A stretch of DNA of 64,000 nucleotides from an uncultured Parachlamydiaceae bacterium (GTDB lineage Bacteria; Chlamydiota; Chlamydiia; Chlamydiales; Parachlamydiaceae): contig CAVVXH010000015.1 of the NCBI GenBank assembly GCA_963752155.1, forward strand, positions 96,001 through 160,000, given 5' to 3'. The stretch's first letter is position 1; every line of letters starts with the position of its first letter. The notes below the pieces were generated by a model. The model was not told the origin of the DNA, ran no database searches, and saw only the letters and a program-made list of their open reading frames with translations. Both the position numbers and the translations under genes were made by a program. Below, piece by piece: positions 3,919 to 60,672 of this stretch.

Positions 3919-4154
3919 CAGCAATTCCCGCTAAACTTTGGTGCTCGGGTGCGCACGTGCGTGCCGTGCCCCTTACTTTCCGCAGGTAAAAGTGATGCAA
4001 GATTTTATCCGAAAAACATTTTATACTATTGTGTCGGGTTAGGTCTACACTTTTTTTTATTCATTTTTCGGAACATTTTTCAATTTGACCCCGAAATCAC
4101 CTCTCCTTCAATCAATCAATAAATAAATAAATAAATACGACCTTCCTTTTGAGC
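3919..4154 (+). repeat. family A left-end module (CAGCAATTCCCGCTAA...GACCTTCCTTTTGAGC)
   Basis: Colinear and highly similar to 22586..22825. Confidence 0.9.
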
Positions 4155-4390
4155 GATAAAACGATTAAGAACGATAAAAACGATAAAAACGATAAAAACG
4201 ATAAAAACGATAAGAACGATGGAAAAAGACTAGAAATTACCTCATCAAAATCTTTAGGAAAAGGCTGCAAAACAATGAGGACTTTTCGATTAGTCTAGAA
4301 GAAATCTTTAAGAAAAAGTATGCGCAAAATCGTTCTTATCGTTCCTATCGTTCTTATCGTTCCTATCGTTTTATCGTTCTTATCGTTTTT
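4154..4390. repeat. family B fold-back: (CGATAARAA)n - spacer - (TTYTTATCG)n
   Basis: 9-mer tandem arms in inverted orientation; spacer motif CAATGAGGACT shared with the copy near 36770. Confidence 0.9.
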
Positions 4391-5032
4391 TTAGATGATT
4401 TCCCATTGCTGTTGCAAACCAATACTATGTAATTTTCTCGTAGGATTTACGATCACTTTATTTCCACAACTGAGCAAAAAAGAAAGATCGAGAGAACTAT
4501 CGCTATAAGCAGTACTATTTTGATAGGCTATACCATTCTCTTGAAAGGCTTTAGATGCCCAAGCTGCCTTGACGTCCCCCTCAACTAAATGCTCAATATG
4601 TGAGAATAAACCTGCAGAGCTTACAGCATAGATGGAAGACTCAACGTGCAAAACACCGAGTTTCTGAGCAATCGTGCTAACAATAAATTTTGGAGAACTC
4701 GATAAAATAGCCACAAAATGACCTGCATTTTGAGCCCTTTTAAGCCGTTCAATGGCTGGGCTATAAAGAATAGTATTCAAATGACCCTCAACAAATTGAT
4801 TGGCATACATCTCAATCTGCTTCGCTGACCGCCCCTGAAAAAGCCTCTTAAAAATCGCATGATGAACGGATACAATCGAAATCAAACCCAGTTTATGCAA
4901 AAGATAAATGCTTAAAAGCTGCAAAAGACGAAAAAAAGAGAAAAAACCCTGTTGGTACAAGAACTTGCCAAAGTAAAAACTGCTATTTACCTTCAGCAAA
5001 GTTCCGTCTAGATCAAATAGGCTTGCATGCAT
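4391..5032 (-). CDS. HAD-IB family hydrolase (SerB-like)
   Basis: FDLDGTL, LSSS, conserved K and AYSDSSLDL motifs. Confidence 0.85.
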   Translation of the reverse strand: MHASLFDLDGTLLKVNSSFYFGKFLYQQGFFSFFRLLQLLSIYLLHKLGLISIVSVHHAIFKRLFQGRSAKQIEMYANQFVEGHLNTILYSPAIERLKRAQNAGHFVAILSSSPKFIVSTIAQKLGVLHVESSIYAVSSAGLFSHIEHLVEGDVKAAWASKAFQENGIAYQNSTAYSDSSLDLSFLLSCGNKVIVNPTRKLHSIGLQQQWEII

Positions 5033-5046
5033 AAACTCACAAGGGT

Positions 5047-7920: not shown

Positions 7921-7928
7921 GTTATCCC

Positions 7929-13235: not shown

Positions 13236-13309
13236 ATTGTGCTTGTTGGTTTTTTATTATATGATATCCAACACATTATAAGCTAAAAATTTTCGCCATG
13301 CAAGATAAT

Positions 13310-13499
13310 AAGGACGGCAAGGACAGCAAGGACAAAAAGGACGAAAAGGACAACAAGGACAACAAGGACAACAATGACGTGGGACGCAAAGGATATATTT
13401 GATAAAATGTCTTTGCTGTACTATAACCTGTTACTGTCCTTGTTTGCTGTCCTTGTCGTCCTTGCTGTCCTTGCTGTCCTTGCTGTCCTTACCGTCCTT
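13310..13499. repeat. family C fold-back: (AGGACARCA)n - spacer - (TGYTGTCCT)n
   Basis: Inverted arms of 9-mer tandem units; same unit as 45830..45960. Confidence 0.9.
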
Positions 13500-14481: not shown

Positions 14482-14555
14482 GGGACCGGCAATAATAACT
14501 TGTACGATTGGGCTGCGCCAAAGCCCAATTGTGCAAGTTATTATTGCCCAGTCCC
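14482..14555. mobile_element. family F 74-bp palindromic MITE-like element (GGGAC...GTCCC) with TAA on both sides
   Basis: TAA at 14479-14481 and 14556-14558; long internal inverted repeat; relatives at 27033, 31424-31500, 33552, 33870, 41875. Confidence 0.75.
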
Positions 14556-18380: not shown

Positions 18381-19854
18381 TTCACTTTATATCAACAATC
18401 AATGGATTTCAGGAAACGGAACACAGCTAGTTTCCTACAATCCAGCAACTGGAACTCCAGTCTGGGAAGGAACTACAGCAAATGCTGAAGATGTCAATTT
18501 AGCTGTAGAATCTGCTCGAGCAGCATTTCCAAGCTGGTCAGAGACTCGAATAAAAACACGAATAAAATTTCTAAGAAAATTTCAAACGATCTTAGAAAAT
18601 AATAAATTTGAGTTCGCTGAAACGATCTCTTTAGAAAATGGGAAGCCAATATGGGATGCTGCTAACGAGGTCAATTCTATCTTAACTAAAGTCGATATCA
18701 GCATCGATGCCTACGAAATGCGTTGTTTGCATTTAGTCAAAGATGAAAAGGGAAAACACACTGTTTTACGCCATCGTCCACATGGGGTCATCGGTGTATT
18801 TGGTCCTTTTAATTTCCCTGCACACTTGCCAAATGGACATTTTATCCCTGCTCTCCTCGCAGGGAACACAATTGTTTTTAAACCCAGCGATCTAACTCCA
18901 CTCGTTGCAGAAAAAATGATTCGTTTTTGGAAAGAAGCAGGCCTTCCAGCTGGGGTCATCAATTTGCTTCAAGGAGGAGTCGCAACTGGCCAAGCTCTAG
19001 CAAATCATCACAATCTTGACGGCATCTTTTTCACTGGAAGCTGGGCTGTAGGAAAACATTTAACAGAACTTTACAGTCAAAGATCTGGGAAAATTCTTGC
19101 TCTGGAAATGGGTGGCAATAATCCCCTAATTTTTACCGAAGTCGACAATCTCAAAGCTGCTGCGTATACTACCATTCAATCTGCTTATTTGACTTCGGGT
19201 CAGAGGTGCACCTGCGCCCGCAGGCTGATTATTCCAGAGGGTTCCAAAGGTGACGCTTTCATCAACGAGCTTCTTTCCTTGACCAAAAATATTAAAATTG
19301 GACCCTACACAGATTCCCCGCAACCTTTTATGGGCCCATTGATTTCCCCTAATGCAGCAAAGAAGCTTCTAGAGACTCAAGATAAACTGATCGAACAAGG
19401 TGGACGTCCTCTTATGAAAATGTCCGCGCTGAAACAGGGTTCTGCGTTTCTATCGCCTGGTCTCATCGATGTCACAGCAGTAAAAAATCGCAATGACGAG
19501 GAGCATTTTGGGCCATTTTTGCAACTCATTCGCGTAAAAGACTTTCAAGCGGCGCTGCAAGAAGCTAATCAGACTGAATACGGCCTTACGGCGGGCCTTC
19601 TAAGTCGTCATAAAGATGAATTTAATCAGTTTTGCGCTAGCATTAAAGCTGGGATCATAGCATGGAACTCCCCTACAACAAATGTAGCTTCTTCACTTCC
19701 CTTTGGAGGAGTAGGGAAAAGCGGAAATTTCCGACCTACAGCCCTTTATGCCGCAGACTATTGCGCTTATCCTGTAACATATATAGAAAATAGCTCGTTA
19801 GAGCTTCCGGAGACACTTCTCCCCGGAATCCTACCCATAGGAGATTCATCATGA
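18373..19854 (+). CDS. astD: succinylglutamate-semialdehyde dehydrogenase
   Basis: GPFNFPAHLPNGH, LEMGGNNP, GQRCTCARR, SGNFRP..YAADYCAYP. Confidence 0.95.
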   Translation: MANSLYINNQWISGNGTQLVSYNPATGTPVWEGTTANAEDVNLAVESARAAFPSWSETRIKTRIKFLRKFQTILENNKFEFAETISLENGKPIWDAANEVNSILTKVDISIDAYEMRCLHLVKDEKGKHTVLRHRPHGVIGVFGPFNFPAHLPNGHFIPALLAGNTIVFKPSDLTPLVAEKMIRFWKEAGLPAGVINLLQGGVATGQALANHHNLDGIFFTGSWAVGKHLTELYSQRSGKILALEMGGNNPLIFTEVDNLKAAAYTTIQSAYLTSGQRCTCARRLIIPEGSKGDAFINELLSLTKNIKIGPYTDSPQPFMGPLISPNAAKKLLETQDKLIEQGGRPLMKMSALKQGSAFLSPGLIDVTAVKNRNDEEHFGPFLQLIRVKDFQAALQEANQTEYGLTAGLLSRHKDEFNQFCASIKAGIIAWNSPTTNVASSLPFGGVGKSGNFRPTALYAADYCAYPVTYIENSSLELPETLLPGILPIGDSS

Positions 19855-21178
19855 ATGCTGTTGAAGTCAATTTCGATACTTTAGTGGGTCCAACACATAA
19901 TACAAGCGTTATTTCTTTTGGAAATATCGCTTCGCAAACGCGTCACTTGGCTCCTTCAAATCCCAGAGCTGCAGCTCTTCAGGGCCTCGAAAAAATGTTT
20001 TTTCTCGACTCTTTGGGTCTTCGTCAGGGGATTTTTCCACCTCAGAGACGTCCCGATATTCCAACTCTCAGATTGCTAGGCTTTCATGGTACAGATCGAG
20101 AAGTTCTTAAAAGGACTTGGGAACAAAGTCCACTGATATTAATGAGCGTTTGTTCCTCAGCTTCTATGTGGACAGCCAACAGCTCCGTCATTACCCCTTC
20201 ATGTGATAACAAAGATAATCGCGTACATATTACACCTGCGAATTTAAGTAGCAAATTTCACCGATCGATCGAAGCACCACATACAGCAAGAACTTTAAAA
20301 CTAGTTTTTCCCGGAGCCACATTTTGAACACCATCCACCTCTACCCTATGGAAATTACTTCAGCGATGAAGGAACAAGTCAACCATACCTGCTTAGCAAA
20401 ATGCATGGCACACCTGGAGTACACCACTTTGTGTATGGACGCTCTAGCTTCAAAGAGAACTTGCTTGCTCCGAATCGATATCCGGCGCGTCAAGCGCTTG
20501 AAGCGAGTGAATCTGTGGCAAGATTTCACGGCTTAAACCCTTCCGCCGTTTGCTTTGTTCAGCAAAATCCAGAAGCGATAGATGGTGGAGTCTTCCATAA
20601 TGATGTGATTTCTGTCGGCAATAACAATCTATTTCTTTACCACGAAAAGGCCTTTTGCAATAGTGAAAATCATATTAACATCCTCAAAAATGCAGTGAAT
20701 GAAACATGTCAAACTCATCTAATTTGCATCAAAGTCCTTGAAAAGCAAGTTTCACTAAAAGACGCCGTCGAATCTTATCTTTTTAATTCTCAGCTTATTA
20801 CATTGAAAGACAATACCATGATGATCATACCCTATCGAATGCCCAGAAACGACTCCTTCGGTCTTCAAATATTTAACTGAATTAACAGAAGATCCCGACA
20901 ATCCTGTCGGCAGAATCCACTATTTTAACTTGAATGAGAGCATGCTCAGTGGCGGAGGACCTGCATGCTTGCGCATACGCGTCGTCCTGACACAAAATGA
21001 GTTGGCAACTGTCAATCCACGTTTTATGTTTACTAAGAACCTTTATGAGAAATTAGTCGAATGCGTCAATAAACACTATAGAACAGAACTTGTGCCGAAA
21101 GATTTTGCAGACCCTAAATTTTTTGATGAGTTAATGGAGGCTCAGGACGCGATTGAAAGAATCTTCGAAATTCAATAG
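19851..21178 (+). CDS. astB: N-succinylarginine dihydrolase, broken by several single-base frameshifts (likely assembly errors, otherwise a pseudogene)
   Basis: EVNFD..VGPTHN, SNPRAAALQGLEKM, SASMWTAN, GVFHNDVISV and ESM.SGGGPACLRIRV are spread over at least three frames. Confidence 0.88.
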
Positions 21179-21187: not shown

Positions 21188-21253
21188 AACACGTTATTCC
21201 ATGGAAAAACGTGTTCATCACCCACGTTTTTCCATGGAATAACGTGGAAATGT
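21188..21253. repeat. tandem pair of 24-bp palindromes (consensus CACGTTATTCCATGGAATAACGTG), 33-bp period
   Basis: Cores at 21190..21213 and 21223..21246, one mismatch each; perfect third copy at 25474..25497. Confidence 0.9.
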
Positions 21254-21254
21254 C

Positions 21255-21283
21255 TTGCTCTATCGACTCTATTTCGTTAGAAT
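21255..21283 (+). promoter_or_regulatory. sigma70/66-type promoter; likely leaderless mRNA
   Basis: TTGCTC-17 bp-TAGAAT, ATG 6 nt downstream, no Shine-Dalgarno. Confidence 0.55.
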
Positions 21284-21289
21284 AAAATT

Positions 21290-22588
21290 ATGAAACGCAA
21301 TATCTATCAGTCCCTTCAAGAGTGGAAAGAATCTCCTCGCCGCAAACCTCTTATTTTAAATGGAGTCAGACAATGTGGCAAAACCTATTCTCTCAAGTAT
21401 TTTGGTCATACATTTTACAAAAATATCGCCTATCTAAATTTTGAAAGAGATGAAAAACTTAGTCAATATTTTGAAGAGACCCTAGACCCAAAGCGACTCA
21501 TAAAGATCCTCAGCATACACTTAGAAGTTGAGATTGAAGCCGAAAAGACACTACTCATTTTTGATGAAATACAGAACTGCTCAAAAGCCCTCAATAGTTT
21601 AAAGTATTTTTGCGAAGAAGCCAATGAATATCACATAGCAGCTGCAGGTTCTCTCCTGGGTGTAACAACAGTCCGAGAAGCAGGGTTTTCCTGTAGGGAA
21701 AGTGAACTTCCTTCACCTTTATCCCTTAACATTTTTCGAATTTCTCACAGCTATAGGACAAGATAAAACGCGCTTGTTCCTAGAGGAATATCATTCATAT
21801 GATCCCATTCCAAATCCACTGCATGAAAAATTAATCCATTTTCTAAAAATTTATCTTTTTATTGGTGGAATGCCAGAAGCGGTAGCTGAATATGCAAAGA
21901 CAGAAAATCTGAACGTCGTTAGAGAAATTCAACTGGAAATTCTTTCGGCATACGAAAAAGACTTTTCAAAGCATGCCCCTCCTACAGAAATTATGAAGAT
22001 CATGACAGTCTGGACACAAATTCATCGCCAATTAGCAAAAGAAAACAAAAAATTCATTTTTGCAGCAATACGAAAAAGCGCTAGAGGCCGAGATTATGAA
22101 GAAGCCATTCAATGGCTTTCAGATGCAGGACTTATTCACAAAAGCTATCTAGTTGAAACTCCTAAATTTCCTCTTAAGCAGCCTATGCCGACAATTCGAC
22201 TTTTAAAGTCTTTCTATGCGATGTAGGATTGCTAGGAGCCCAAAGCAATCTTTCTCCTCAAACAATTATTGATGGAGATCGATTTATTTGCTGAATTCAA
22301 AGGAGCTCTTACAGAAAATTATGTAGCCCAGGAATTAATCGCAACTCAAAATAAAAAGCCTTATTACTGGACTAGCCAAGGCACAGCTGAAATTGACTTT
22401 TTGATTGAAAGTGACCATGAAATTTATCCGTTAGAAGTGAAAGCTGGCGAAAGCAGAAAAAAAAGAGTCTTCTTGTTTACGAACAGAAATACTCTCCTTC
22501 AAAGCTTCTTAGATCCACAACTATGAATTTAAAACATGATGGAAATATCTATAATTATCCACTTTATTTGGTGTCTCAGTTAACATAG
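21290..22588 (+). CDS. AAA_14-type ATPase with DUF4143-like C-terminal domain, frameshifted in several places
   Basis: GVRQCGKT Walker A, IFDEIQ Walker B, IGGMPEAV, ENYVAQEL, EIDFL...PLEVK; reading frame ends ...YPLYLVSQLT-TAG. Confidence 0.85.
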
Positions 22589-23501
22589 CAATTCCCGCTA
22601 AACTTTCGTGTGCGTGTGCGTGCCCGAAAAATTTCGTAGATTTTACTAATTTTCGGGCACGGGCACCTTACTTTCCGCAGGTAAAAGTGATGCAAGATTT
22701 TATCCGAAAAACATTGTATAGAGTTAGGTCTACACTTTTTTTTTATTCCTTTTTCGGAACATTTTTCAAATTTGACCCCGAAATCACTCTTCTTCAATCA
22801 AAAAATACCGACCTTCCTTTTGAGCTTTTTTGAATTAATTCTTTCTCATTCTCGTAAAAAAGATTTTTGACTTTCTTATCAATCTCATTTAATTCTCTAA
22901 GTATCTTCCGATATCTTCGATAATTAAATGTTCAATGATGTCACCACCTTCTTCAATTATCGTTCTTATCGTCTTTATCGTTTTTATCGTTCTTATCGTT
23001 TTTATCATTTTTATCGTTTTTATCGTTTTTATCGTTGCATCGTTGATTACGTCTACATATCCAACTCACAGGGTATTTTGAGCTTATTTTACTGCAATTT
23101 CATTGATGTTCACAGCTTGATACGTTCTGTTGCTACTGTAGATCAACGGTATAAACGATAGGAACGATAAGAACGATAAGAAGGATAGGAACGATAATAA
23201 GGATAAGAATGATAATTGAGGAAGGTGGTGACATCATTGAACATTATGAACTATCTGATTTGCATTTGAGCATACTTAAAATGCTAGGAATTGAAAAGAA
23301 ACATTATTGGCAGACCTCCGCAGGATAATTTAATATGATCATCTATTTTGCCAATCAAAAACAACCAGCTTGGCTATCCTCGCCAAGGGGGATCGTTTTC
23401 CATGGCGGTTGACATCAGTAAGGCATCACAAAATTGCATCACTTCTACCCGCGGAAAGTAGGGGGCACGCACACGGGCACGAAAATTAGCGGGAATTACT
23501 G
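22586..23501. mobile_element. 916-bp non-autonomous element (family A) with ~70-bp imperfect TIRs and a 9-bp TSD
   Basis: CAGTTAACA at 22577..22585 and 23502..23510; ends TAGCAATTCCCGCTAA / TTAGCGGGAATTACTG. Confidence 0.85.
22927..23245. repeat. family B fold-back with ~35-bp outer inverted arms, nested inside the family A element
   Basis: AATGTTCAATGATGTCACCACCTTCTTCAATTATC ... GATAATTGAGGAAGGTGGTGACATCATTGAACATT plus 9-mer arrays. Confidence 0.9.
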
Positions 23502-25471: not shown

Positions 25472-25504
25472 AACACGTTATTCCATGGAATAACGTGGAA
25501 ATGT
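25472..25504. repeat. perfect 24-bp palindrome with flanks matching 21188..21253
   Basis: AACACGTTATTCCATGGAATAACGTGGAAATGT. Confidence 0.9.
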
Positions 25505-25508
25505 AAAT

Positions 25509-25795
25509 TGTAGCTCATCACTCCGATGCTGAGTGTAGCCACGTAGCCTCCATATGGTCTAAACCACTGTGTGAAATCGTAATAACCAAAAAATTGCGCA
25601 AATTTCTTAGCCGTTACGATCTCACGCAGTGGTTTAGACCATATGGAGGCTACGTGACTACACTCAACATCGGAATGATGAGCTACAGTTTGCTCAAATT
25701 TCTTAGCTGTTACGATATCAGTCGATTTTGTAATCTTCCCTAGACATCCGGTATAAGATGCGCACACGACCACGAAAGTTTAGCGGGAATTGCTG
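25509..25795. repeat. family G long hairpin (25509..25687) plus a family A right end
   Basis: TGTAGCTCATCA...GTAGCCACGTAGCCTCC / GGAGGCTACGTGACTAC...TGATGAGCTACA; second copy 33694..33842. Confidence 0.9.
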
Positions 25796-25902: not shown

Positions 25903-27033
25903 ATGAATAATGCTAAAGGTATCAACTGGGGGACAGCGATTTTCTTGATCACTTATCAAGTCATCTTACTGTTTTCTTTGCCTTTTTATTTTTACTACTG
26001 CACTCCCCATATAGGGACCCTCATTAGTGCCTTTGTTTTGCTATGGTTAACAGGCCTCAGTATCACTGCAGGCTATCACCGTTGTTTTGCTCATCGTAGC
26101 TACAAGGCCCACCCTGTTCTTGAAGCCATATTAGTTTTTTTCGGAACAATGGCCGTCCAAGCAAGCGTCTTACGCTGGTCTTACGAACATCGCCTTCATC
26201 ATGCTTTCGTCGATACAGATAAAGATCCCTATTCCATTAAGAAGGGCTTCTGGTATGCACACTTTTTGTGGATGCTAGAAAAGCTTCAGCCCATTGATCC
26301 TAAAGTTGTTCCTGACCTAATCAACAAAAAGATGATCAGCTTTCAACACCGCTATTATAAATTTTTAATGGTTGCCGTCAATGCATTAGTATTTTTTGCG
26401 GTGGGAGCGGCTTTCCAAGATTACTGGGGCGCATTTTTTATAGCTGTGTGGCTGCGCATTTTCTGCTTACAACATTTTACATGGTTCATTAATTCTCTTG
26501 CTCATACTTGGGGCAGCAAACAATTCAGCCTTGAACAATCTGCTGTCGATAACTATGTGATCGCCTTGTTGACATTTGGAGAAGGTTATCACAACTTCCA
26601 TCATACGTTTGCAAACGACTATCGCAATGGAATTCGTTGGTTTCATTTTGATCCAACGAAATGGCTCATCTGGACACTCTCAAAAGTCGGCCTTGCACAT
26701 GGCCTAAAAAAGACCGACTCTTTGACAATAAAAAAACGATTGATCATAGAGCATAAAGCTTATCTAATGGAAAATCTTTCTAGCTACTGGGAAGACACAA
26801 AACACGAACTTGAAAAACAGGTTATCGATCTCTCGGAACGGATTTTATCAAGTATCACTGAATTTGCTAAGCTCAGAGAACTGCAATCAAAGAAAGAAAC
26901 TTCTGAACCTAGTTCTATAGAACAAATTCAGGGGAATATTCGTGAACTGCAGATGAAATTAAAAGAAGACTGGAATCAGTGGAAAGCGTTGTCACATAGT
27001 ATTTTACGACCTGAAAATCGACCAATAGCTTAG
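25903..27033 (+). CDS. membrane acyl-CoA (delta-9-type) fatty acid desaturase
   Basis: His boxes GYHRCFAH, HRLHH, GEGYHNFHH; GGAGG RBS. Confidence 0.93.
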   Translation: MNNAKGINWGTAIFLITYQVILLFSLPFYFYYCTPHIGTLISAFVLLWLTGLSITAGYHRCFAHRSYKAHPVLEAILVFFGTMAVQASVLRWSYEHRLHHAFVDTDKDPYSIKKGFWYAHFLWMLEKLQPIDPKVVPDLINKKMISFQHRYYKFLMVAVNALVFFAVGAAFQDYWGAFFIAVWLRIFCLQHFTWFINSLAHTWGSKQFSLEQSAVDNYVIALLTFGEGYHNFHHTFANDYRNGIRWFHFDPTKWLIWTLSKVGLAHGLKKTDSLTIKKRLIIEHKAYLMENLSSYWEDTKHELEKQVIDLSERILSSITEFAKLRELQSKKETSEPSSIEQIQGNIRELQMKLKEDWNQWKALSHSILRPENRPIA

Positions 27034-27122
27034 GGACTGGGCAAGGACGGGATGTCCTTGCCGCCCTAAAAACCCTCCTTCACCCCTCTCAGCGCCATCT
27101 TTTTATTTTTCTTATTTTTCTG

Positions 27123-29435: not shown

Positions 29436-29667
29436 AGGTGCTGCGCTTTAAATAACAAAATCGACTGATGCTGAATACTAAGAAAAATTAAACTCAAAGG
29501 GACGAAGGCACAAAGAGCACCAAGAGATCTTACGCGAAGAATCTTCAGTTTAAAGAGAAAATAGTAAATTTTATACTTTACATGTAAGATATCTTTGTGC
29601 TCTTTGTGCCTTCGTGCCTTTGTGTTTAATTTTTTCCTATACTTTATATCCTAATATCGCAGCATCT
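29436..29667. repeat. family D fold-back (AAAAATTAAACRCAAAGGCACGAAGGCACAAAGAG arms)
   Basis: Inverted arms and conserved core; similar to 42825..43038 and 47742..47913. Confidence 0.92.
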
Positions 29668-29720
29668 GGCCTCGTTACCTACCATTGCCCACTCTTTAAG
29701 ACTCTAAAAATACCAAAACT

Positions 29721-29902
29721 TAATTTTGTGGTATGAAAACCCACACGAAAATTCATACCACAAAATAAAGAAAAGCTAATTTTGTGGTATGAAAATATAA
29801 AGGAAATATCATACCATAAAAAGAAGAAAAGCTAATTTTGTGGTATGAAAACTCACACGAAAATTCATACCACAAAATAAAGAAAAGCTAATTTTGTGGT
29901 AT
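29721..29902. repeat. 56-bp-period array of alternating-orientation 15-mers (ATTTTGTGGTATGAA)
   Basis: Units start at 29721, 29777, 29833, 29889; ends at the RBS of the ATPase gene. Confidence 0.93.
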
Positions 29903-29913
29903 AAGGAAAACTC

Positions 29914-31342
29914 ATGCATTTTGTTGGTAGAAAAAAAAGAATTAGAAATCCTCGAACGCCTTAAATTGAAAAATTCTTCAAGCCTTGTCGTAGTATGGGG
30001 GAGAAGGCGAATCGGGAAAAGTAGGCTTATTTCGGAATACCTGAAAAAGAAAAAAAGTTGGAATTTTTCTGGCCTTCCTCCGTCGCCTCATGTAACCCAT
30101 CAAGAACAAATTAATGTCTTTATAAGTCAAATGGCCCGAAATATCGGCATGCCTGAACTTAAAACATCAGATTGGAGCGAAGTTTTTTGGCATCTAGGTA
30201 ATCAAGCTGAAAAAGAACCAGAACTCATCATTTTCTTTGATGAAATTTCATGGATGGGTTCAAAAGATTCAAATTTTTTGGGATATTTAAAAACAGAATG
30301 GGATAGAAGCTTCTCTAAACATCCAAAATTAATTTTAATTCTATGTGGTTCTGTTTCAAGTTGGATAGAAAAGAATATTCTTAGCAGCACTGGATTTCTA
30401 GGAAGAATCTCTATAAAATTAGAAGTAAAGGAATTACTATTGTCTGAATGTAATGAATTTTGGTCATTACAAAGTAAACGTATAAGTAGTTATGAAAAAT
30501 TAAAAGTTTTAAGTATAACAGGAGGAGTCCCCAAATATTTAGAAGAAATTGTGCCAGGTGAGTCAGCAGAAAAAAATATAAGCAATTTATGTTTTACACC
30601 CCAGGGACTCCTCTACAGAGAATATGATCAAATATTTTCGGATCTATTTTCTAGAAGAACTCCCACATTTGACAAAATAATTAAAACACTCGCTGATGGA
30701 CCAAAAAGTTTAACAGATATATCCAGTGAATTGACAATAGATAAAAGTAATTTAACTGATTATTTACATGAACTCGTTACAGCTGGATTTGTATCTGAAG
30801 ATTTCACTTGGAATATTAAAAATAAAAAAGAGTCAAATCTCAAAAAATTCCGTTTAAAAGATAATTACACTCGATTTTATTTAAATTTTATTTTACCTAA
30901 CAAAGGTAAAATACAGCTTGGAGTATTTTATAATAATTCTTTATCAAATCTTTCAGGTTGGGAAGTCATATTAGGGCTCCAATTTGAAAATCTAGTAGTC
31001 AATAATGTTGTTAAGTTGTGTCAGATCATAGGGATTGATATTCAACAAGTTGAACAAGCTGGGCCCTTTTTTCAAAAAAAGACAGAAGCAAGACCTGGAT
31101 GCCAAATTGATCTACTTGTACAAACAAAATTTGCAACACTTTATCTATGTGAAGTGAAATTTTGCATGGGAGAAGTCAATAAATCCGTGGTCCATGATGT
31201 AAAAATTAAATTAGATCGATTAAGTATTCCAAAAGGCTATTCCGTGCGCCCGATTTTAATTCATGTGAACGGAGTGACACAAGGAGTAGTTGAAAGCGGT
31301 ATTTTCGATAAGATAATAGATTTTAACGAGTTTTTGCAATAG
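29914..31342 (+). CDS. P-loop ATPase (archaeal-ATPase type) with probable winged helix and PD-(D/E)XK-like C-terminus; one extra A in an A8 run after codon 6
   Basis: AAGGA + ATG gives MHFVGRKK, which continues as ELEILERL if A8 (29931..29938) is A7; WGRRRIGKS, FFDEISW, TGGVPKYLE, IDLLV...LCEVK. Confidence 0.85.
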
Positions 31343-31423: not shown

Positions 31424-31500
31424 TTTGTGCAAGTTATTATTGCACAGTCCCTTAGGGATTGTGCAATAATAACTTGTATGATTGGGCTGCGCCAAAGCCC
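31424..31500. repeat. two abutting family F half-elements sharing one TTA
   Basis: ...CAGTCCC-TTA-GGGATTGTGCAATAATAACTTG... Confidence 0.8.
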
Positions 31501-31918
31501 CGTGGTTAAGCGATCGAAAGTGACCCAATAGCCAAAAGGAAAAGCAAATGATCTCTTCAGACCAAAGAAAAGAAGAATCTAAAAATCAAGTTCCCCCGTT
31601 CCTTTTTGTACTTAAAGAAGGGCCAGAATTTGAGAAAAATTTACTCGATTATTCTCTATGCATGATGCAAATCAAACCGGAGAGCTTTAAAAATTCAAAT
31701 CAGAAAATAATCGTCTCTTCTCGAAATAAATATGACAGTCAAGTTGGCTAAAACTTGACTCCACACTGCTGAAAAAAAATGCAAAAGTACATATCTCTCT
31801 TGCATAATTCAATATGAATCATCTAAAATGATGACTTCAAGCATTCGTCATCCCTTCAAGGCTGACTCATACAATGCAGCCCAAGAAAATGAACTTTAAA
31901 TTTAAGGAGAATCATCAG

Positions 31919-33526: not shown

Positions 33527-33900
33527 TTCTGACATTTTGCCCTTCTCGTTTAGGGTCTGTAAAACTTGTGCGATTGAGCAAAGCGAAAGCCCAATCGCAC
33601 AAGTTATTGTTCTACAGAAATAAATGTCAGAATAGGAGAGAAACAAATCCTAAACCTCTTTGTGAAATCGTAACAACTAAAATGATTGCAGATTGTAGCT
33701 CATCATTCGTATGTTGAGTGTAGCCACGTAGCCTCCAAGTAGTTTAAACCACTACGTGAAATCGTAACAACTAAAAAGATTGTACAAAACAGTGGTTTAA
33801 ACTACTTGGAGGCTACGTGGCTACATTCAACATCGGGATGAATCAATACGGTCGATGAAAGGGCTCTTAGGGACCGTGCAAGTTATTGTTGCACAGTCCC
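33527..33900. repeat. composite repeat block: E arms enclosing an F-like hairpin, then a G hairpin, then a short F element
   Basis: TTCTGACATTT...AAATGTCAGAA around AACTTGTGCGATTG..CAATCGCACAAGTT; G at 33694..33842; F at 33870..33900. Confidence 0.85.
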
Positions 33901-33970: not shown

Positions 33971-34564
33971 TCAAAATATATAACCTTCAGGATCGATGTC
34001 CATTGATCTATCGTCAAATGAAGTGTGGTTTCTGATTTCTGACTTAAATCCATTTAAAGGATAAGTAGAAATAAACTTTTGTAAGTCAGATCTTAAAATC
34101 CAATTTTCATCATCATAGTCAGATCTATTTAATTCATGGGATAAACAAAATGTAAATTCAAGTTTAAAATGTTCCTGAGTCATTCCAATGAGCTTGTTTA
34201 AGCTGACGTGAATAAATTTTTCACTTAATTCGACTGGGGTATAACTCCAATCATCACCTAAAGGAGCACAGCGGAAAACATATTGCCCAGTATGTTCTGC
34301 AGTTAATTTGTATCCAATCCCCAAAATTCCTATGCTCGTTTCCCTATCTGATTTTAGCACTAGAATATTATTAAATTTATTTTCATTCGTTTTATATCTT
34401 GGCATTTCATGAATTATAGCGTTCCATAATAAACAAACACGACTCAAAGTCACAATCGAAGCAAAATCAGATTTTTCATTCTTTTCATATATATATTCAA
34501 AAAGGGGTTCTATCACTCCTGTTGGAATTGTATTAATATTATTTAATGAATTCAAGTTATTCAT
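33971..34564 (-). CDS. F-box-like protein, tandem paralogue 1
   Basis: IPTGVIEPLFEYI...IVTLSRVCLLWNAII; GGAG RBS. Confidence 0.7.
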   Translation of the reverse strand: MNNLNSLNNINTIPTGVIEPLFEYIYEKNEKSDFASIVTLSRVCLLWNAIIHEMPRYKTNENKFNNILVLKSDRETSIGILGIGYKLTAEHTGQYVFRCAPLGDDWSYTPVELSEKFIHVSLNKLIGMTQEHFKLEFTFCLSHELNRSDYDDENWILRSDLQKFISTYPLNGFKSEIRNHTSFDDRSMDIDPEGYIF

Positions 34565-34709
34565 AGACTCTCCTTTTCATAAAAAACATAAAGACATTAT
34601 CCTAGATATTTCATTTTCGTGCAATTAAAAAACAGGCAAATTCCATAAGGGAGGCTCCAGACCTAACATTCTGACATTTACCCTTCGGATCCAATTATTC
34701 TTCGCCTAT

Positions 34710-35303
34710 TTATGTATCATCAAATCTAATTAATCTAAATTCTGACTTAAATCTATTAAAAGGATAAGTAGAAATAAACTTTTGTAAGTCAGAGCTTAAA
34801 ATCCAATTTTTATCATCATAGTCAGATCTATTTAATTCTCGGGATGAACACAATGGAAATTCTAAATAAAAATGTTCCTTAGTTATCCGAATGAGTTTGT
34901 TTTTGGAGTTTCCATCTGGGGTATAACTCCAATCATTACCTAAGGGAGCACAGCGGAAAACATGTTGCCCAATATGTTCTGCGGTTAATTTGTATCCAAT
35001 CCCCAAAATTCCTATGCTACATCCCTTATCCGATTTTAACACTCGAATATTATTAAATTTTACATTCGTTTTATATCTCGGCATATTTTGAATTTTAATT
35101 TTCCATAATGAACATACTCGTTCCAAAATCATAATCGAAGTAAAATCAAATTTTTCATTCTTTTCATATATATATTCCAAAAGAGGTTCTATCACTCCTG
35201 TTGGAATTGTAATAACATTCTTTTCATATTTATATGGCAAAAAAAGTGTCACCACTCCTGTTGGAATTATAATAACATTATTTAATGAGTTCAGGTTATT
35301 CAT
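34710..35303 (-). CDS. F-box-like protein, tandem paralogue 2
   Basis: Diverged copy with a duplicated 20-aa N-terminal segment. Confidence 0.7.
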   Translation of the reverse strand: MNNLNSLNNVIIIPTGVVTLFLPYKYEKNVITIPTGVIEPLLEYIYEKNEKFDFTSIMILERVCSLWKIKIQNMPRYKTNVKFNNIRVLKSDKGCSIGILGIGYKLTAEHIGQHVFRCAPLGNDWSYTPDGNSKNKLIRITKEHFYLEFPLCSSRELNRSDYDDKNWILSSDLQKFISTYPFNRFKSEFRLIRFDDT

Positions 35304-35404
35304 AGACTCTTCTTTTCATAAAAAACATAATGTCATTATCCTAGATGTTTCATTTTTGTGCAATTAAAAAACAAGCAAATTCCATTATGATCGGAATGAT
35401 GAAC

Positions 35405-36145
35405 TCAGAGGACATGAACTCGAGGAATTTGATTGAAACCAGAAATGAAAATTAATTGCAAATTCGAGAAAATTTCAAATTTTTGATATTCCCTCGGCAA
35501 TCTAATTTTTCTTTTAGAAATTAATAAATGATCAGGCTTTCGTCTGTTCATGAAATTAATCAACCGATAGGGGGTTCCAGGGTAGATTGTTTCAGTCTGG
35601 GAAGTGTGGTTTCTGATTTCTGACTTAAATCCATTTAAAGGATAAGTAGAAATAAACTTTTGTAAGTCAGAGCTTGAAATCCAATTTTCGTCATCATAGT
35701 CAGATCTATTTAATTCATGGGATAAACAAAATGTAAATTCAAGTTTAAAATGTTCCTGAGTCATTCCAATGAGCTTGTTTAAGCTGACGTGAATAAATTT
35801 TTCACTTAATTCGACTGGGGTATAACTCCAATCATCACCTAAAGGAGCACAGCGGAAAACATATTGCCCAATATGTTCTGCAGTTAATTTGTATCCAATC
35901 CCCAAAATTCCTCTGCTCGTTTCACTATCTGATTTTAGCACTAGAATATTATTAAATTTATTCTCATTCGTTTTATAGCTTGGTATTTCATGAATTATAG
36001 CGTTCCATAATAAACAGACACGACTCAAAGTCACAATCGAAGTAAAATCAGATTTTTCATTCTTTTCATATATATATTCAAAAAGGGGTTCTATCACTCC
36101 TGTTGGAATTGTATTAATATTATTTAATGAGTTCAAGTTATTCAT
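35405..36145 (-). CDS. F-box-like protein, tandem paralogue 3
   Basis: Nearly identical to paralogue 1 up to IRNHTS, then an unrelated C-terminus. Confidence 0.7.
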   Translation of the reverse strand: MNNLNSLNNINTIPTGVIEPLFEYIYEKNEKSDFTSIVTLSRVCLLWNAIIHEIPSYKTNENKFNNILVLKSDSETSRGILGIGYKLTAEHIGQYVFRCAPLGDDWSYTPVELSEKFIHVSLNKLIGMTQEHFKLEFTFCLSHELNRSDYDDENWISSSDLQKFISTYPLNGFKSEIRNHTSQTETIYPGTPYRLINFMNRRKPDHLLISKRKIRLPREYQKFEIFSNLQLIFISGFNQIPRVHVL

Positions 36146-36236
36146 AGACTCTCCTTTTCATAAAAAACATAAAGACATTATCCTAGATATTTCATTTTCG
36201 TGCAATTAAAAAACAGGCAAATTCCATAAGGGAGGC

Positions 36237-36330
36237 TCCAGACCTAACATTCTTACATTTGCACTTCTGAGAGGTCGTGTTATCGTTTAAGCAAATGTCA
36301 GAATATCAGGTCTGGCACGAATGGCAAGGC
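36237..36330. repeat. family E hairpin
   Basis: CCAGACCTAACATTCTTACATTTGC...GCAAATGTCAGAATATCAGGTCTGG. Confidence 0.85.
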
Positions 36331-36367
36331 ATAAAAAAAAGATTGAGTCAAAAGCATGATCGGAATG

Positions 36368-36959
36368 CATACGCATCAGGATAAGGATAAGGAATAAGAA
36401 AATTGAAATTTTATTTCCTTATCCTGAATCTTGATACGTATGCATTCCGAGTATACAGCTTGACACGTTCTGTTGCTACTTTGGATCAACGGTAAAAACG
36501 ATAAGAACGATAGAAACGATAGAAACGATAGAAACGATAAGAACGATAAAAACGATAAGAACGATAAGAACGATAGAAACGATAAGAACAATAAAAAACT
36601 ATAAAAACGATGGAAGAAGTCTGGTTGTAGGAAAAACGGTAATCGTGGAATTAAAATGTTGTAAAAGTTTGGTTCGCGAACATGAGACGCAATTATTCAA
36701 CTATTTAAAAGTTTCTCAACTTTAAATCGGTTTGTTAGTAAATTTCCGGCATAGGAAATTACTGCAAAGCAATGAGGACTCGACTAATCTCTAGAAATCT
36801 GGGACGTACTGAGTATCCCACACATTTTTATCGTTCTTATCGTTTTTATCGTTCTTATCGTTCTATCGTTTGCATCGTTGATTACGTCTACATAAAAAAC
36901 ATATCCCGACAACATCGTGAATGCGTGTTAATGTTAATTTCCTTATCCTGATGCGTATG
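36368..36959. mobile_element. 592-bp non-autonomous element (family H) with perfect 20-bp TIRs and a 10-bp TSD, carrying a family B fold-back (36455..36894)
   Basis: CATACGCATCAGGATAAGGA / TCCTTATCCTGATGCGTATG; GATCGGAATG at 36358..36367 and 36960..36969. Confidence 0.8.
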
Positions 36960-37101
36960 GATCGGAATGATGAGCCACAATCTGCGCAAAATTTTTAGTT
37001 ATTACGATGTCCCAGCGACATTGCGCCTCTGAAGCGATTTTGGCTCAAAAGATTGCGTCAATTTATCGTCTTTAACTGCCGTTTCTAGGTTTAACCTATC
37101 T

Positions 37102-41491: not shown

Positions 41492-41909
41492 AAGATGCTA
41501 CGATATTAGGTACAAAGTATAGGAAAAAATTAAACGCAAAGCGAGACAGTTGCCTGCGGCGCCCCCTATTGGGAAATAACAAATTTTTAAAGCGCCTTGC
41601 CATTGGTGCCTGACCTGATATTCTGACATTTGACTACAATGATGACATAACCTCCCAGGAGGGCAAATGTCAGAATGTCAGGTCTGGAACCAATGGCAAG
41701 GCGCGAACTTGTTATTTAGGAGGCACGAAGGCACAAAGATCATAAAGAGATCTTACATGTAAAGTGTAATATTTTTCTTTAAATTGAAGATTCTTCGTGA
41801 AGGAGAATTCATCCAATCTAAATTAAATGAACAATATAAGTCGATTTAAGCAATAATTCCCGCTAATTTTCGTGCAGCCCAAACGTGCAAGTTATTGTTG
41901 AACAGTCCC
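41492..41909. repeat. composite D::E element (E at 41542..41722), followed by A and F fragments
   Basis: D arm interrupted after AAACGCAAAG by E; near-identical to 60361..60672. Confidence 0.9.
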
Positions 41910-42764
41910 TAATTCATACCAACAATGTTCAGATCGGTTAATAAACTGGGTAGTATATCTAAATGCTAGCCCAGGAATATCCTTAAAATCGCAGGTTTTG
42001 CTTCCTAAACAAAAGAAAGCCGAACCTGACCCTGAAAGCAATGGATACTCAAAATCCAATGCTTCAAGGCTCTTTTTAAAATGATACAGAGAAGGAAGTA
42101 ATTCGAAGGCTGATTCTTCTAAATCATTAAAGAAGATCGATTGCCCTTCCATAAATTGTTTCAAACATATCATTGGATCTCGTTTTATTAATTTGTCTAA
42201 CTTAAGATTTCGATAGACTAATGGAGTCGACAATCCTTGAACTGGCTTAAAAATCTGGAGATCTTGCTTAGGAAGCCGTGGAAGAGATTCTATCTGTTCT
42301 CCACGCCCCGTGCAGTAGGCGGTACCGCTGGAAAAGAAAAAAGGAACATCGGCTCCTATTTCTGCTGCCCAAGATGTAAGCTCCTGAATGGAAACAGGAC
42401 TCTCCGCTAAACGATTCACAGCCCACAAAGCTGTTGCAGCATTACTACTGCCCCCTCCTAGGCCTGCTTCAACTGGAATACGCTTTTCGAGCTCAACTTT
42501 TACAGAGAAATGGTATCCTGTTTTATTACGATAAAGCTCTATTGCTTTCCAAATTAGATTTGTAGGACCGGTAGGAAGATGTGGATTGGTTGAGACCAGT
42601 TGATCTGTATCGCTTTTAGTCACATGTAGAGTATCGCAAAGGGCAATTGCCTGAAAAAGAGAAGCTAGCTCATGGTAGCCATCGGGACGTTTATGTAGAA
42701 TGCGCAAAAAAAGGTTAACTTTTGCTGGGGATAATAGGGAAATGGAATTGAAAGAATGTGGCAT
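41892..42764 (-). CDS. ispE: 4-diphosphocytidyl-2-C-methyl-D-erythritol kinase
   Basis: SPAKVNLFL, DGYHEL, IPVEAGLGGGSSNAA, LSGSGS. Confidence 0.97.
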   Translation of the reverse strand: MPHSFNSISLLSPAKVNLFLRILHKRPDGYHELASLFQAIALCDTLHVTKSDTDQLVSTNPHLPTGPTNLIWKAIELYRNKTGYHFSVKVELEKRIPVEAGLGGGSSNAATALWAVNRLAESPVSIQELTSWAAEIGADVPFFFSSGTAYCTGRGEQIESLPRLPKQDLQIFKPVQGLSTPLVYRNLKLDKLIKRDPMICLKQFMEGQSIFFNDLEESAFELLPSLYHFKKSLEALDFEYPLLSGSGSAFFCLGSKTCDFKDIPGLAFRYTTQFINRSEHCWYELGTVQQ

Positions 42765-42824: not shown

Positions 42825-43038
42825 CTCCTAAATAACAAAATCGACTGATGGATATAAAGTATAGGAAAAATTAAACGCAAAGGCACGAAGGCCCAAAGAG
42901 ATTTTACGCGAAGAATCTTCAGTTTAAAGAAAATAAGTAACTTTTATACTTTACCTGTAAAATCTCTTTGTGCTCTTTGTGCCTTCGTGCCTTTGCGTTT
43001 AATTTTTCCTATACTTTATACCCTAATATCGCAGCACC
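42825..43038. repeat. family D fold-back
   Basis: Same arms and core as 29436..29667. Confidence 0.92.
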
Positions 43039-45829: not shown

Positions 45830-45960
45830 GGGCAAGGACAGCAAGGACGACAGGGACAACAAGGACTACAACAAAGACAATCGTCAATCATTAGTCTTGT
45901 TATATATAATCCCTGTTGTCCTTGCTGTCCTTGTTGTCCTTGTTGTCCTTGCTGTCCTTG
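45830..45960. repeat. family C fold-back
   Basis: (AAGGACARC)n ... (GYTGTCCTT)n. Confidence 0.9.
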
Positions 45961-47741: not shown

Positions 47742-47913
47742 TATAGGAAAAATTAAACACAAAGGCACGAAGGCACAAAGAGCACAAAGAGATCTTACAT
47801 GTAAAGATCGTACTAACCAAAAAATTCAGCAATTTTTTAAAACTGAAGATACTTCGTGTAAGACCTCTTTGTGCTCTTTGCGCCTTCGTGCCTTTGTGTT
47901 TAATTTTTCTTAG
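47742..47913. repeat. family D fold-back (core inverted relative to 29436)
   Basis: Same arms; flanked by A-type (CGTGCCCGTGCCC) and TTCATGTGCCCTG fragments. Confidence 0.9.
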
Positions 47914-51102: not shown

Positions 51103-51106
51103 GCGT

Positions 51107-51181
51107 TCACGGGGTAAAGCAAAAAGGCCATTGCCATTCTGCTGCGCAGAATGGCAATGGCCTTTTTGCTTCACCCCGTGA
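51107..51181. repeat. 36-bp-stem near-perfect hairpin
   Basis: TCACGGGGTAAAGCAAAAAGGCCATTGCCATTCTGC-TGC-reverse complement with one mismatch. Confidence 0.9.
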
Positions 51182-51364
51182 CGTAATTTAAAAACACGCA
51201 TCTAGGGGTTACTCAGGCAACTCAACTGCCTGTCAGATATGGGGGGAAGAAAGGGAAGTTTTAATTTATATTTTCGTGAACGCTTCCATTTTCTTCTTTT
51301 CGATTAAAAAAGAATGAGGTAACATCCAATATGCAGCTTCCGTGCAAGAAAACTAGCGAGAAGT

Positions 51365-51460
51365 CAGCAATTCCCGCTAATTTTTGTGCCCGTGCCCGTG
51401 ACCGAAAATTTGTAAAATCTACGAAATTTTTCGGGCACGGGCACGAAAGTTTAGCGGGAA
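51365..51460. repeat. short palindromic family A element
   Basis: CAGCAATTCCCGCTAA...CACGAAAGTTTAGCGGGAA. Confidence 0.85.
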
Positions 51461-54608: not shown

Positions 54609-54613
54609 TACCC

Positions 54614-57112: not shown

Positions 57113-57470
57113 TTAACGCAAAGAAACAAAAGACGCGAAGGCGCAAAGAAAATAGGCCATGATCTTTGCGCCAAATACTTGCTTCTCCTAAATAACAAGT
57201 TCGCGCCTTGCCATTGGTGCCTGACCAGATATTACTGACATTTGCCGATGCGATAACATTGCTTCCTAAAGGGCAAATGTCAGAATATCAGGTCAGGCAC
57301 CAATGGCAAGGCGCTTTAAAAATCTGTTATTTCCCGATAGGGGGCGCCGCAGGCAACTGTCTCGCTTTGCGTTAAAAAAAAATTAAACTTTTCTGTTTTA
57401 GCATTTCGTTGTTCTTGATATCACAACACGGCTAAGTGGGCAAGGGCACGAAAATTAGCGAGAATTGCTA
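57113..57470. repeat. D::E composite (E reversed, 57185..57364) plus a family A right end
   Basis: Reverse complement of the E blocks at 41542 and 60403. Confidence 0.9.
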
Positions 57471-57487
57471 TAAATCTAACTTACCCC

Positions 57488-57516: not shown

Positions 57517-57584
57517 TAGCAGTAAGTATTGTAGCATCGAAATAAATCGGCCACATCTAGGCTCTTAAACTACGGGGGATTCGA

Positions 57585-57854: not shown

Positions 57855-57938
57855 CCCCCCATCCAAGTCACAAATTTTCAAATGAGGATATCAATTTCAA
57901 TCAAACTGCCACACATTTCAGTTGTTGGCCATAAAATT

Positions 57939-58098
57939 GGCCTCATTCTCCTTTTGGGTCAAAAATACGGTCGACTGCGAAACGCCGACTGCGCAGCTTT
58001 GCTCCTCGGCAATAGCTTAGGCTATTACCTCGTCGCAAATCAGCACATTCGGCATTTCTCGTCTGACCGTATTTTCGACCGAAAAGGTGAACGAGGCC
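57939..58098. mobile_element. 160-bp palindromic MITE-like element (family I) with an 8-bp TSD
   Basis: GGCCTC...GAGGCC ends; ATAAAATT at 57931..57938 and 58099..58106; whole element folds back on itself. Confidence 0.8.
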
Positions 58099-58259
58099 AT
58101 AAAATTCACGTTTATTTGGTTGATATTGATGTTCTCACCTTATACAATGCTATTAATTTGCACAGAATGGAATACACCTGTGCAAACTCTCTAAACTCTA
58201 CACAAGCCTTTCATCAGGCTATCATCAAACAATGCTGAAATAGGAGCACCTAAAATACT

Positions 58260-60354
58260 ATGTCGCACGAATCCATCACAGTGACCATTGGAGAACAAAA
58301 TATTACTTTTGAAACAGGGAAAATTGCACGTCAAGCCAATGGAGCTGTCATTGTACGATGCGGCGAGACGCTGATATTCAGCACGGCCTGCGCGACAACT
58401 AAGCCTGGTGAAGAAACAGATTTCCTTCCTTTAAAAGTAGACTACCAAGAGCCTTTATCCGCTTCCGGAAAAACCAACAGCGGCTTTGTTAAACGTCAAG
58501 GTCGACCTACCGAAAGAGAAGTTTTAGTCTCTCGTTTAATAGATAGACCTTTACGTCCTATGTTTGAAGAGGGCTATTTCTGTGAAGTGCAGTTGCTTTC
58601 TTATGTCTGGTCCTATGACGGTGTTCATCTTCCCGACCCATTAGCCATTTGCGGCTGTTCTGCCGCCTTAGTGATTTCTGACATTCCCCTCATCAAACCT
58701 GTAGCAGGAGTACGTGTAGGACTTGTTGAAGGTCATTTCATTTTAAACCCGACAATGGCCCAGCAAAAGGTTTCCAAACTCGATTTATCGCTTGCTGGGA
58801 CCGAAGACGGCATTCTCATGATCGAAGGCTTCTGCGACTTTTTAACAGAAGATCAAATCATCGAGGCCATTGCCTTAGGTCACGCAGGGATTAAAAAGAT
58901 CTGTTCAGCGTTGCTCGAATGGCAAAAGAGAATAGGAAAACCAAAAAATCGTTCTTCCCTTCGAATACTCCCACCAGAAGTACTTGCTGCTGTAGATGCG
59001 ATTGCTTCCCCATTGCTGCCGAATGCTCTACGCATCGTTGAAAAGCAAAAAAGAGAAGAAGCTCTTTCTGCAATCGATGCTAAAGTCATCGAGCAATTGT
59101 GTCCTACTCATGGAGAAGGTAAATATAAAGAACTTGACGTACGCAATGGGATTAAACAAACAACCGCACGTCATATGCGTCAAATGATCGTCAATACTAA
59201 TGTTCGTAGCGACGGAAGAAACACTACCCAGATTCGCCCGATTACAATCGAACAAGGTTTACTTCCACGCGCACATGGCAGCACTCTTTTTACTCGTGGA
59301 GAAACACAAGCTGTTGCTGTGTGTACCCTCGGCGGGGAAAGCATGGCTCAACGGTTTGAAGATTTAGAAGGAGAAAGCGCTTCTCGCTTCTATCTACACT
59401 ATTTCTTCCCTCCTTTTTCTGTGGGTGAAGTGGGAAGGGTAGGAGCTCCGGGCCGTCGCGAACTAGGTCACGGCAAACTTGCAGAGCGCGCCTTAGCTGC
59501 TATTATTCCTTCCAAAGAAAAATTCCCCTACACAATCCGCATCGAATCAAACATCACCGAATCGAATGGGTCTTCCTCGATGGCGTCAGTCTGTGGAGGA
59601 TGCTTAGCTCTCATGGATGCGGGTGTTCCTATCGACCGCCCTGTTGCCGGTATTGCTATGGGTCTTATCCAGGAAGGGACTCATTACTCAGTTCTGTCTG
59701 ATATTCTTGGAATCGAAGATGCTCTCGGCGATATGGACTTCAAAATTACCGGCGATGATAAAGCGATTACTGCCTTTCAGATGGATATCAAGATTGAAGG
59801 GATCCCGCCGGAAATCATGAAAGTAGCACTCGCTCAGGCAAAAGAAGGTCGTATACACATCCTTAAAGAAATGTTGAAAGCCTGCCCACCGTTACCGTGA
59901 ACAGATGTCAGTTCATGCCCCTCGCATTGAAACAATGCGTATCAGATCTAATATGATCGCAAAAGTTATTGGCCCTGGGGGTAAACAAATCCGCGCCATT
60001 ACTGATGAAACGGGAGTAAAGATCGACATTGATGATTCTGGTGGTTATGGCTTAATCAGTATCTCTTCTTCGAATATGAAGGCTATCGAAAAAGCTATGA
60101 ACATCATCGAAGGACTCACCGCTGAAATTGAGATCGGAAAGGTCTACAAAGGCAAGGTTATAGCTGTTAAAACTTTTGGGATGTTCGTAGAAGTCCTTCC
60201 TGGAAAAGAAGGCCTTTGTCACATTTCTGAATTCGATCATATGCGTATTGAAAATCTTGAAGAACTTGTCAAAGTCGGGGATGTCGTTTCTGTGAAAGTC
60301 ACTGAAATTAACGAACGCGGACTCATTAAATTGAGTCGAAAAGCTGCTCTGTAG
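58260..60354 (+). CDS. pnp: polyribonucleotide nucleotidyltransferase, with one frameshift near 59890
   Basis: ETGKIARQANG, FTRGETQ, ESNGSSSMAS, GDMDFK, KH and S1 domains; deleting one C gives ACPRYREQMSVHAPRI. Confidence 0.97.
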
Positions 60355-60360
60355 TTTATA

Positions 60361-60672
60361 ACGATATTAGGGTATAAAGTATAGGAAAAATTAAACGCAA
60401 AGCGAGACAGTTGCCTACGGCGCCCCCTATTGGGAAATAACAAATTTTTAAAGCGCCTTGCCATTGGTGCCTGACCTGATATTCTGACATTTGCCTACAA
60501 TGATAACGTAACCTCCTAGGAGGGCAAATGTCAGAATATCAGGTCAGGCACCAATGGCAAGAGGCGCGAACTTGTTATTTAGGAGACACGAAGCCACAAA
60601 GAGCACTTACGATACTTTACATGTAAGAACTCTTTCTGCCTTCGTGTCTTTGCGTTTAATTTTCCTATACTT
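60361..60672. repeat. D::E composite (E at 60403..60585)
   Basis: Near-identical to 41500..41765. Confidence 0.92.

Follow-up and report, generated by a model that had tools for sequence, protein, structure and literature searches.

The intergenic spaces of a 64,000-nucleotide stretch of the genome of an uncultured Parachlamydiaceae bacterium (contig CAVVXH010000015.1, positions 96,001 to 160,000; hereafter the window) hold inverted-repeat elements of nine families, A to I, lying inside and beside one another. These arrangements are probably two-layer mosaics. The first layer would consist of hairpin cores whose sequence corresponds to the inverted arms around genes encoding GxxExxY nucleases, four-helix-bundle proteins and tyrosine transposases of the TIRYT type, and the second of insertion sequence (IS) ends that likely take these cores to new sites, their transposases being supplied in trans from elsewhere. 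A 181-bp unit with IS110-family ends was probably guided again and again into the arms of D hairpins, and the other nestings were probably single events.

All nine families were found, to within a few bases, where an earlier note on this DNA lists them. Several of these sites (3919, 25770, 41851, 41875 and 57443) carry family sequence as single ends or halves, and G at 36960 is limited to one side, complete G..G brackets being present on other contigs. In the assembly under study (G000; 3.13 Mb, 22 contigs, 80% complete, the window being C15:96001-160000), a census by BLAST, seeded with modules taken from the window and the genome and joining matches ≤120 bp apart, gave 567 clusters covering 80,794 bp (2.6% of the assembly), cluster counts varying with seed choice and with the 120-bp joining. 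The families are therefore not restricted to the window, a restriction that the earlier note had named as refuting its reading, and an environmental chlamydia is able to give about 2.6% of its genome to such elements. The most numerous were E (164 clusters), D (120), the IS110-end modules (119), an additional family r2 (118, none inside the window) and A (86), followed by C (60), G (57), B (50), F (42), H (9) and I (6). In an Rfam scan of the window, two tRNAs alone passed the gathering score, the repeats matching no known RNA family.

B, D, C and the inner core of A matched inverted arms around GxxExxY and four-helix-bundle genes. TIGR04256 had 14 matches in G000. B arms surround an intact GxxExxY gene (C10:276728), the B copies of the window being deletions, and D arms flank a second GxxExxY clade, of which one copy is frameshifted near its start and another is cut by an A end. 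C arms flank a four-helix-bundle gene with a premature stop (C1:43174); this stop and the GxxExxY frameshift may be assembly errors. Among metagenome homologs of the B-armed GxxExxY gene (80 loci), inverted repeats bordered 62 of the 70 with both flanks, and direct repeats six. Inverted repeats were also present at 16 of 26 chlamydial four-helix-bundle loci, the 6-mer core of A at eight of the 26, and the GxxExxY and four-helix-bundle genes of relatives carry arrays of their own. GxxExxY and four-helix-bundle proteins are candidate movers of B, C, stand-alone D and G, while the origin of H can only be guessed at, from its 6-mer form. Matched pairs of arm and gene are thereby offered for GxxExxY nucleases.

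No excess of target duplication was detected for B, C and D, which have ragged ends, and r2 is likewise without target duplication. C comprised 53 paired elements in 30 spacer groups. Two candidate explanations for C were rejected: as captured DNA, its spacers gave long matches solely to other C-like repeats (phages lay outside this search), and the four-helix-bundle remnants of 30 C clusters reflected a search module that included the C arm, coding sequence occurring at one locus alone. Viral contigs held no relatives of the four-helix-bundle or IS110 proteins. Within the A[B] composite, at window positions 23036-23150, B's right outer end meets its left outer end head to tail at a shared AC, with the arms facing outward, an arrangement that resembles a circle junction. 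In the relative G005, one GxxExxY cassette occurs at two loci with different outer flanks (L049 and L054), the L049 copy having E-like repeats on either side.

E hairpins lie on both sides of an intact gene for a 341-aa Y1 transposase (C10:596682), one of two tyrosine transposases encoded in G000. The protein possesses an HUH motif, a catalytic tyrosine, a long C-terminal tail and a weak DnaA match, and inverted repeats run across the gene in all 20 homologs with both flanks (22 in all), the motif GGGGWSAS being clear in the repeats of many homologs and degenerate in E itself. The E unit had a folding z of -15.3. Judging from its sequence features, the partner of E is a TIRYT-type transposase; it scored 71.7 on the RAYT model NF047646 (cut-off 80), above which the second tyrosine transposase (C11:40444-41348, with r2 upstream) scored 98. 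The earlier statement that no transposase was in sight thus holds for the intact open reading frames (ORFs) of the window, which nonetheless contains a GxxExxY remnant (36618-36761). Beyond the window it fails, as coding partners exist: TIRYT for E, GxxExxY for B and D and a four-helix-bundle gene for C in G000, and the DDE transposase and IS110 recombinase described below in relatives.

The 181-bp unit, with its asymmetric left and right IS110-family ends around an E hairpin core, has a fixed target, a two-base core and no target duplication, and carries neither a transposase nor a guide RNA. Its left-end motif led to an IS110-type ORF in G115, whose left end is nearly identical to that of the unit, and to G153, where five whole copies (448 aa from the match start, NF033542) share a single insertion base in a 9-mer arm and have an AG core. 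Different arms follow the IS110 end in four genomes. The non-coding region upstream, its core present at 8 of 34 loci (four genomes), contains a predicted guide word identical to the 7 bases on the left side of the insertion (G153 CGCAGAG, G051 CACAAAG, G005 CACAGAG; 6 of 7 in G115), and also a donor word equal to the right end of the element (four relatives). Such target and donor words are expected of bridge or seek RNAs, according to the accessible portions of PMC11208160 and PMC11187229. Assignment to the IS1111 subgroup, characterised by subterminal repeats of 11-13 bp that lie 7 and 3 bp from the ends and by a downstream non-coding region, was rejected, as the repeat is 7-8 bp long and ~30 bp from the left end, with the non-coding region upstream.

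In G000, 77 left ends out of 112 are preceded by AAC(G/A)CAAAG, and 77 target-like sites are still empty. Across the 16 complete single units, unit divergence was 0.098 within and 0.097 between host classes, unit and host divergence were uncorrelated (r = -0.10, n = 12), and removal of the unit restored a junction present empty elsewhere in 12 cases. Unit/host independence together with these restored junctions favours repeated guided insertion, in which an RNA-guided IS110 recombinase acting in trans would likely have put the unit time after time at one base of the D arm. Alternatively, all nesting, D[E] included, might be inherited from a few founder composites spread by a single enzyme, e.g. 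the resident TIRYT transposase acting on the E hairpin, with the IS110 ends as passengers. The intact TIRYT gene in a genome where IS110 was not found, the concentration of D/E junctions in two types (43 and 23) and the E-like repeats around the L049 cassette are in line with this explanation. It is already weakened by the independence test and is unlikely, since the unit occurs in both D arms and in at least two D subtypes and another genome has whole IS110 copies at the same base.

[quoted passage not shown] A 9-bp duplication was present in 22 of 48 A end pairs (0.0 in permuted pairs), an identical 3-mer (TAA/TTA) on both sides in 29 of 37 F pairs (14.8 in permuted pairs) and an 8-bp duplication in both complete copies of I (2/2); from its 3-bp duplication, F is presumably IS5/PIF-like. 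Scanning for the A end retrieved 113 loci, including five elements of 1.6-1.8 kb with perfect duplications in other genomes, and each of the three that were read encodes a DDE transposase of 436-449 aa. The one protein scanned exceeded the PF01609 cut-off and that of no NCBIfam model (IS4 and IS701 models were far below), its 'ISNCY' label being an automatic cluster name only. Homologs occurred in 24 of 60 family genomes, including both same-genus genomes, A-like ends were found at 10 of 16 homolog loci, and A-type ends recur in Chlamydiae and Parachlamydiaceae records. The ends of A are those of a DDE insertion sequence, as seen in other genomes.

In those other genomes, A-type ends are found around arrays of 9-mers or 6-mers, doublets resembling repetitive extragenic palindromic (REP) sequences or the core of I, and in one of them the same end occurs both with and without a GxxExxY relic. 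The A copies of G000 comprise 26 with the 6-mer core, nine of an I-like subfamily, four B composites and 15 others. Cassettes may land within IS ends, which after loss of the transposase would go on to carry the hairpin. Three resident candidates for the A partner were rejected: the ends of two remnants, presumably of ISAs1 (C8:36638) and of an IS1182-like element (C4:63529), do not match, and an IS4-like gene (C5:688) sits in a high-GC stretch of foreign look. This stretch (C5:1-4400) opens a 40%-GC contig and is likely contamination or a chimeric join.

Same-genus relatives G001 and G002 share 70-75% identity with G000. The D hairpin between ispE and rplI was missing from the orthologous spacer of G001 (G002 is not covered there), and I at rpsO-pnp and D/E at tadA-rpsO were missing from both relatives. 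The comparison of orthologous spacers suggested in the earlier note was informative to this extent, base-exact empty sites being out of reach at such distances. These absences, the target duplications of A, F and I, and the recurrence of the same architecture in independent genomes and metagenomes make it highly improbable that recombination, slippage or gene conversion between hairpins, or else errors of long-read assembly, produced the arrays and chimeras with no dedicated mobilisers; for A, F and I as well as the IS110 unit, this explanation is refuted. Such processes would fit the B interiors, which are deleted and flipped between their arms, the array lengths, which vary up to ~470 bp, the split astB and pnp genes, which suggest assembly indels, and the lack of target duplication in B, C, D and r2.

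Mixed-family clusters numbered 91 compared to 60±6 expected (maximum of 79 in 1000 random intergenic placements); a comparison restricted to touching elements (51 vs 11) disregards nested insertion and overstates the excess. By locus, nesting was counted 24 times for E in D, 14 for F in E, eight for B in A, five for B in H and once for H in G, which confirms most of the nestings first listed, C in F being the exception: it amounts to one degenerate 40-bp hairpin (27030-27069) with no like junction type in the census. The 231 junctions fall into 94 types, gaps of 30-110 bp being present in many. F-in-E consists of two junction types of 15 copies each, H[B] of one internal deletion common to ~9 loci, and A[B] occurs at ~8 loci, five of them with their own 9-bp duplication, these separate duplications indicating that it spread as a block. 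F-in-E, B-in-A and B-in-H therefore likely arose in one event each and were then copied as blocks, F-in-E and B-in-H probably under the ends of the outer element. The nesting beyond random proposed in the earlier note thus stands for mixed clusters, while its reading of nestings as repeated events fails for most pairs other than E in D, these being copies of a few composites. Nested-copy counts overstate nesting unless shared junctions are collapsed.

Of 128 A ends, one had another family on its outer side, where 19 were expected; of 101 F ends, 16 did, 15 of them through one junction, with 16.6 expected. A and F do not favour other hairpins, and the targeting of pre-existing hairpins put forward in the earlier note applies to E in D. 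It is accordingly very unlikely that all families accumulate in or target existing hairpins, even with the excess of mixed clusters, the 42 of 136 mixed clusters that have unique junctions only, and the REPINs adjoining unrelated REPINs described in the accessible part of PMC3116915; the collapse of junctions into shared types, many with gaps, also argues against it. The description of the repeats as non-autonomous elements of several unrelated origins, forming mosaics similar to bacterial interspersed mosaic elements (BIMEs) or REPINs, was supported.

Several observations weigh against the two-layer explanation. Neither an A-type transposase nor an IS110 recombinase was found in the G000 assembly (80% complete), so that enzymes acting in trans are inferred; the guide RNA was absent too, and both same-genus genomes likewise gave no close IS110 homologs. 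The guide, a prediction from four genomes only, has an imperfect right-hand match. The independence test covers only 16 complete single units, with two from the second host class, and its outcome would look no different under gene conversion. Guided insertion also fails to explain 28 IS110-type right ends around D or G sequence, whose flanks are unrelated. No transposase partner bounded by F ends was found for F, none was found for I in a limited search, and G and H had no partner. With relatives too distant for base-exact empty sites, movement was deduced and none was observed. When sequencing runs were queried with the B cassette, the one stretch used, none contained half of its sequence words, and RNA runs were not among the matches.

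As a tentative proposal, GxxExxY and four-helix-bundle genes with their tandem-array arms might be undescribed self-moving cassettes whose gene-less hairpins fill the genome and have turned into the programmed target of their own RNA-guided IS110 lineage, with cores swapped between unrelated IS ends, which would make a multi-level parasite system of environmental chlamydiae. A literature search, with most subscription journals outside it and no supplements, returned nothing on repeat arms of GxxExxY or four-helix-bundle genes, nor on such repeats in Chlamydiae. Under the same limits, the term 'GxxExxY' was met only in unrelated papers, and the supplementary TIRYT lists of PMC3733652 may bear on chlamydiae. 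Neither the cassettes with repeat arms nor the IS110 lineage directed at them was thus found in print, and the rest can mostly be explained by known element classes. The lineage would offer an IS110 recombinase with a naturally reprogrammed guide, an AG core and a repeat class unnamed in the literature searched, as well as a gene-less module amplified to more than 100 copies. Overall, a puzzling repeat mosaic is turned into testable enzyme-substrate pairs.

Table 1. Repeat elements of the window, with positions counted from its first nucleotide.
Feature	Position	Strand	Remarks
A left end and body fused to B relic; right A end absent	3919..4390	+	9-mer arms 4151-4236 and 4329-4390 flank a short GxxExxY fragment
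C: inverted 9-mer arrays with unique spacer between	13300..13499	.	Arms matching those around the four-helix-bundle gene (C1:43174)
F: palindromic MITE, TAA at either side	14482..14555	.	
A[B] composite, 916 bp	22586..23501	+	Perfect 9-bp target duplication at A ends; recurs elsewhere, own duplication each time
G hairpin (25505-25691), then lone A end (25780-25795, minus)	25505..25795	.	
F-like end around C-like mini hairpin; one degenerate case, missed by census	27030..27069	.	Sequence only
D hairpin without IS110-ended unit (target arms empty)	29436..29665	.	
F remnants adjoining archaeal-type ATPase gene	31424..31500	.	
Decayed mosaic of E, F and G pieces	33527..33900	.	
E arm, H hairpin, relic of the B cassette, G end	36291..37011	+	Deletion type common to ~9 loci
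GxxExxY remnant, C-terminal, one stop, between B arms	36618..36761	+	
181-bp unit: IS110-family left and right ends, E (TIRYT) hairpin core	41542..41722	+	Fixed base of D arm; host D 41501-41797
Chimera: right half of F fused to A left end	41851..41910	+	
D hairpin	42829..43036	.	Not in orthologous ispE-rplI spacer of G001
C element	45831..45960	.	
D hairpin with different spacer	47742..47912	.	
A end, 6-mer core of the kind flanking chlamydial four-helix-bundle genes	51365..51460	.	
Second IS110-ended unit, in another D subtype	57185..57364	-	Host 57113-57385; lone A end 57440-57470
I: 160-bp palindromic MITE, 8-bp target duplication	57939..58098	.	Not in orthologous rpsO-pnp spacer of G001 and G002
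Third IS110-ended unit, in D arm	60403..60585	+	Host 60362-60663

Other features of the window were recorded beside these elements. A further palindrome family (51104-51182), outside the list of the earlier note, has five loci genome-wide. Two genes that we take from their translations to be astB-like (19851-20880) and pnp (58260-60354) are each broken into two ORFs, which suggests assembly indel errors or real frameshifts. A split AAA_14/DUF4143 ATPase gene (21190-22560) is preceded by two short palindromes, a third copy of which lies at 25474, with the A[B] composite and an F-box gene in between. Three 56-bp tandem hairpins, unique in the genome, stand immediately 5' of an archaeal-type ATPase with a helix-turn-helix domain (29705-31342), and a groEL paralog (31874-33514) has no groES neighbour in view. 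Three tandem paralogs of a 197-246 aa protein of no known kind (33971-36227) form units that each stop at an E or G/H arm; the repeats may be joints of this tandem duplication.

Some intervening sequences of 23S rRNA possess an ORF, a PF05635 four-helix-bundle gene inside a stem-forming inverted repeat. The cassettes described here share this placement of a four-helix-bundle gene within such a repeat, and differ in that their arms are tandem 6- or 9-mers, their loci are intergenic and gene-less derivatives are abundant.

The remaining comparisons are limited to the accessible parts of the cited articles. TIRtrons and TIRYT (TnpA-Y1 subclass 2.1; PMC3733652, PMC6006769) resemble E and its partner in the Y1 transposase with a long C-terminal tail, the flanking inverted repeats that form dimers and clusters, and the GGGGWSAS motif retained in homologs, whereas E itself has drifted from this motif, most of its copies ride inside IS110 ends, and the family is large (164 clusters). 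The bacterial MITEs RUP, NEMIS/Correia, Nezha and ERIC (PMC3733652), compared by description and not by sequence, share with A, F and I short terminal inverted repeats, target duplication and a non-coding nature, although the interior of A consists of swapped hairpin cores and not of a transposase remnant. BIMEs and REPIN clusters (PMC3116915) are likewise intergenic palindrome mosaics with unrelated units inside or beside each other, whereas the units here derive from at least four unrelated enzyme families.

Compared to the REP-targeting IS110 elements IS621, ISPa11 and ISPpu9, the latter with its gene-less ssr9 module (PMC11208160, PMC11187229, PMC12288879), the 181-bp unit and its relatives target the 9-mer arm of GxxExxY cassettes instead of REP and have an AG instead of a CT core; the mini-element is without guide RNA, carries a TIRYT hairpin and has more than 100 left ends in an assembly in which no transposase was found. 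Common to both are a DEDD recombinase (in the whole relatives), guide words (here predicted) in a non-coding end, a two-base core without target duplication, insertion at a fixed base of a hairpin repeat, and a gene-less module that would here also be moved in trans.

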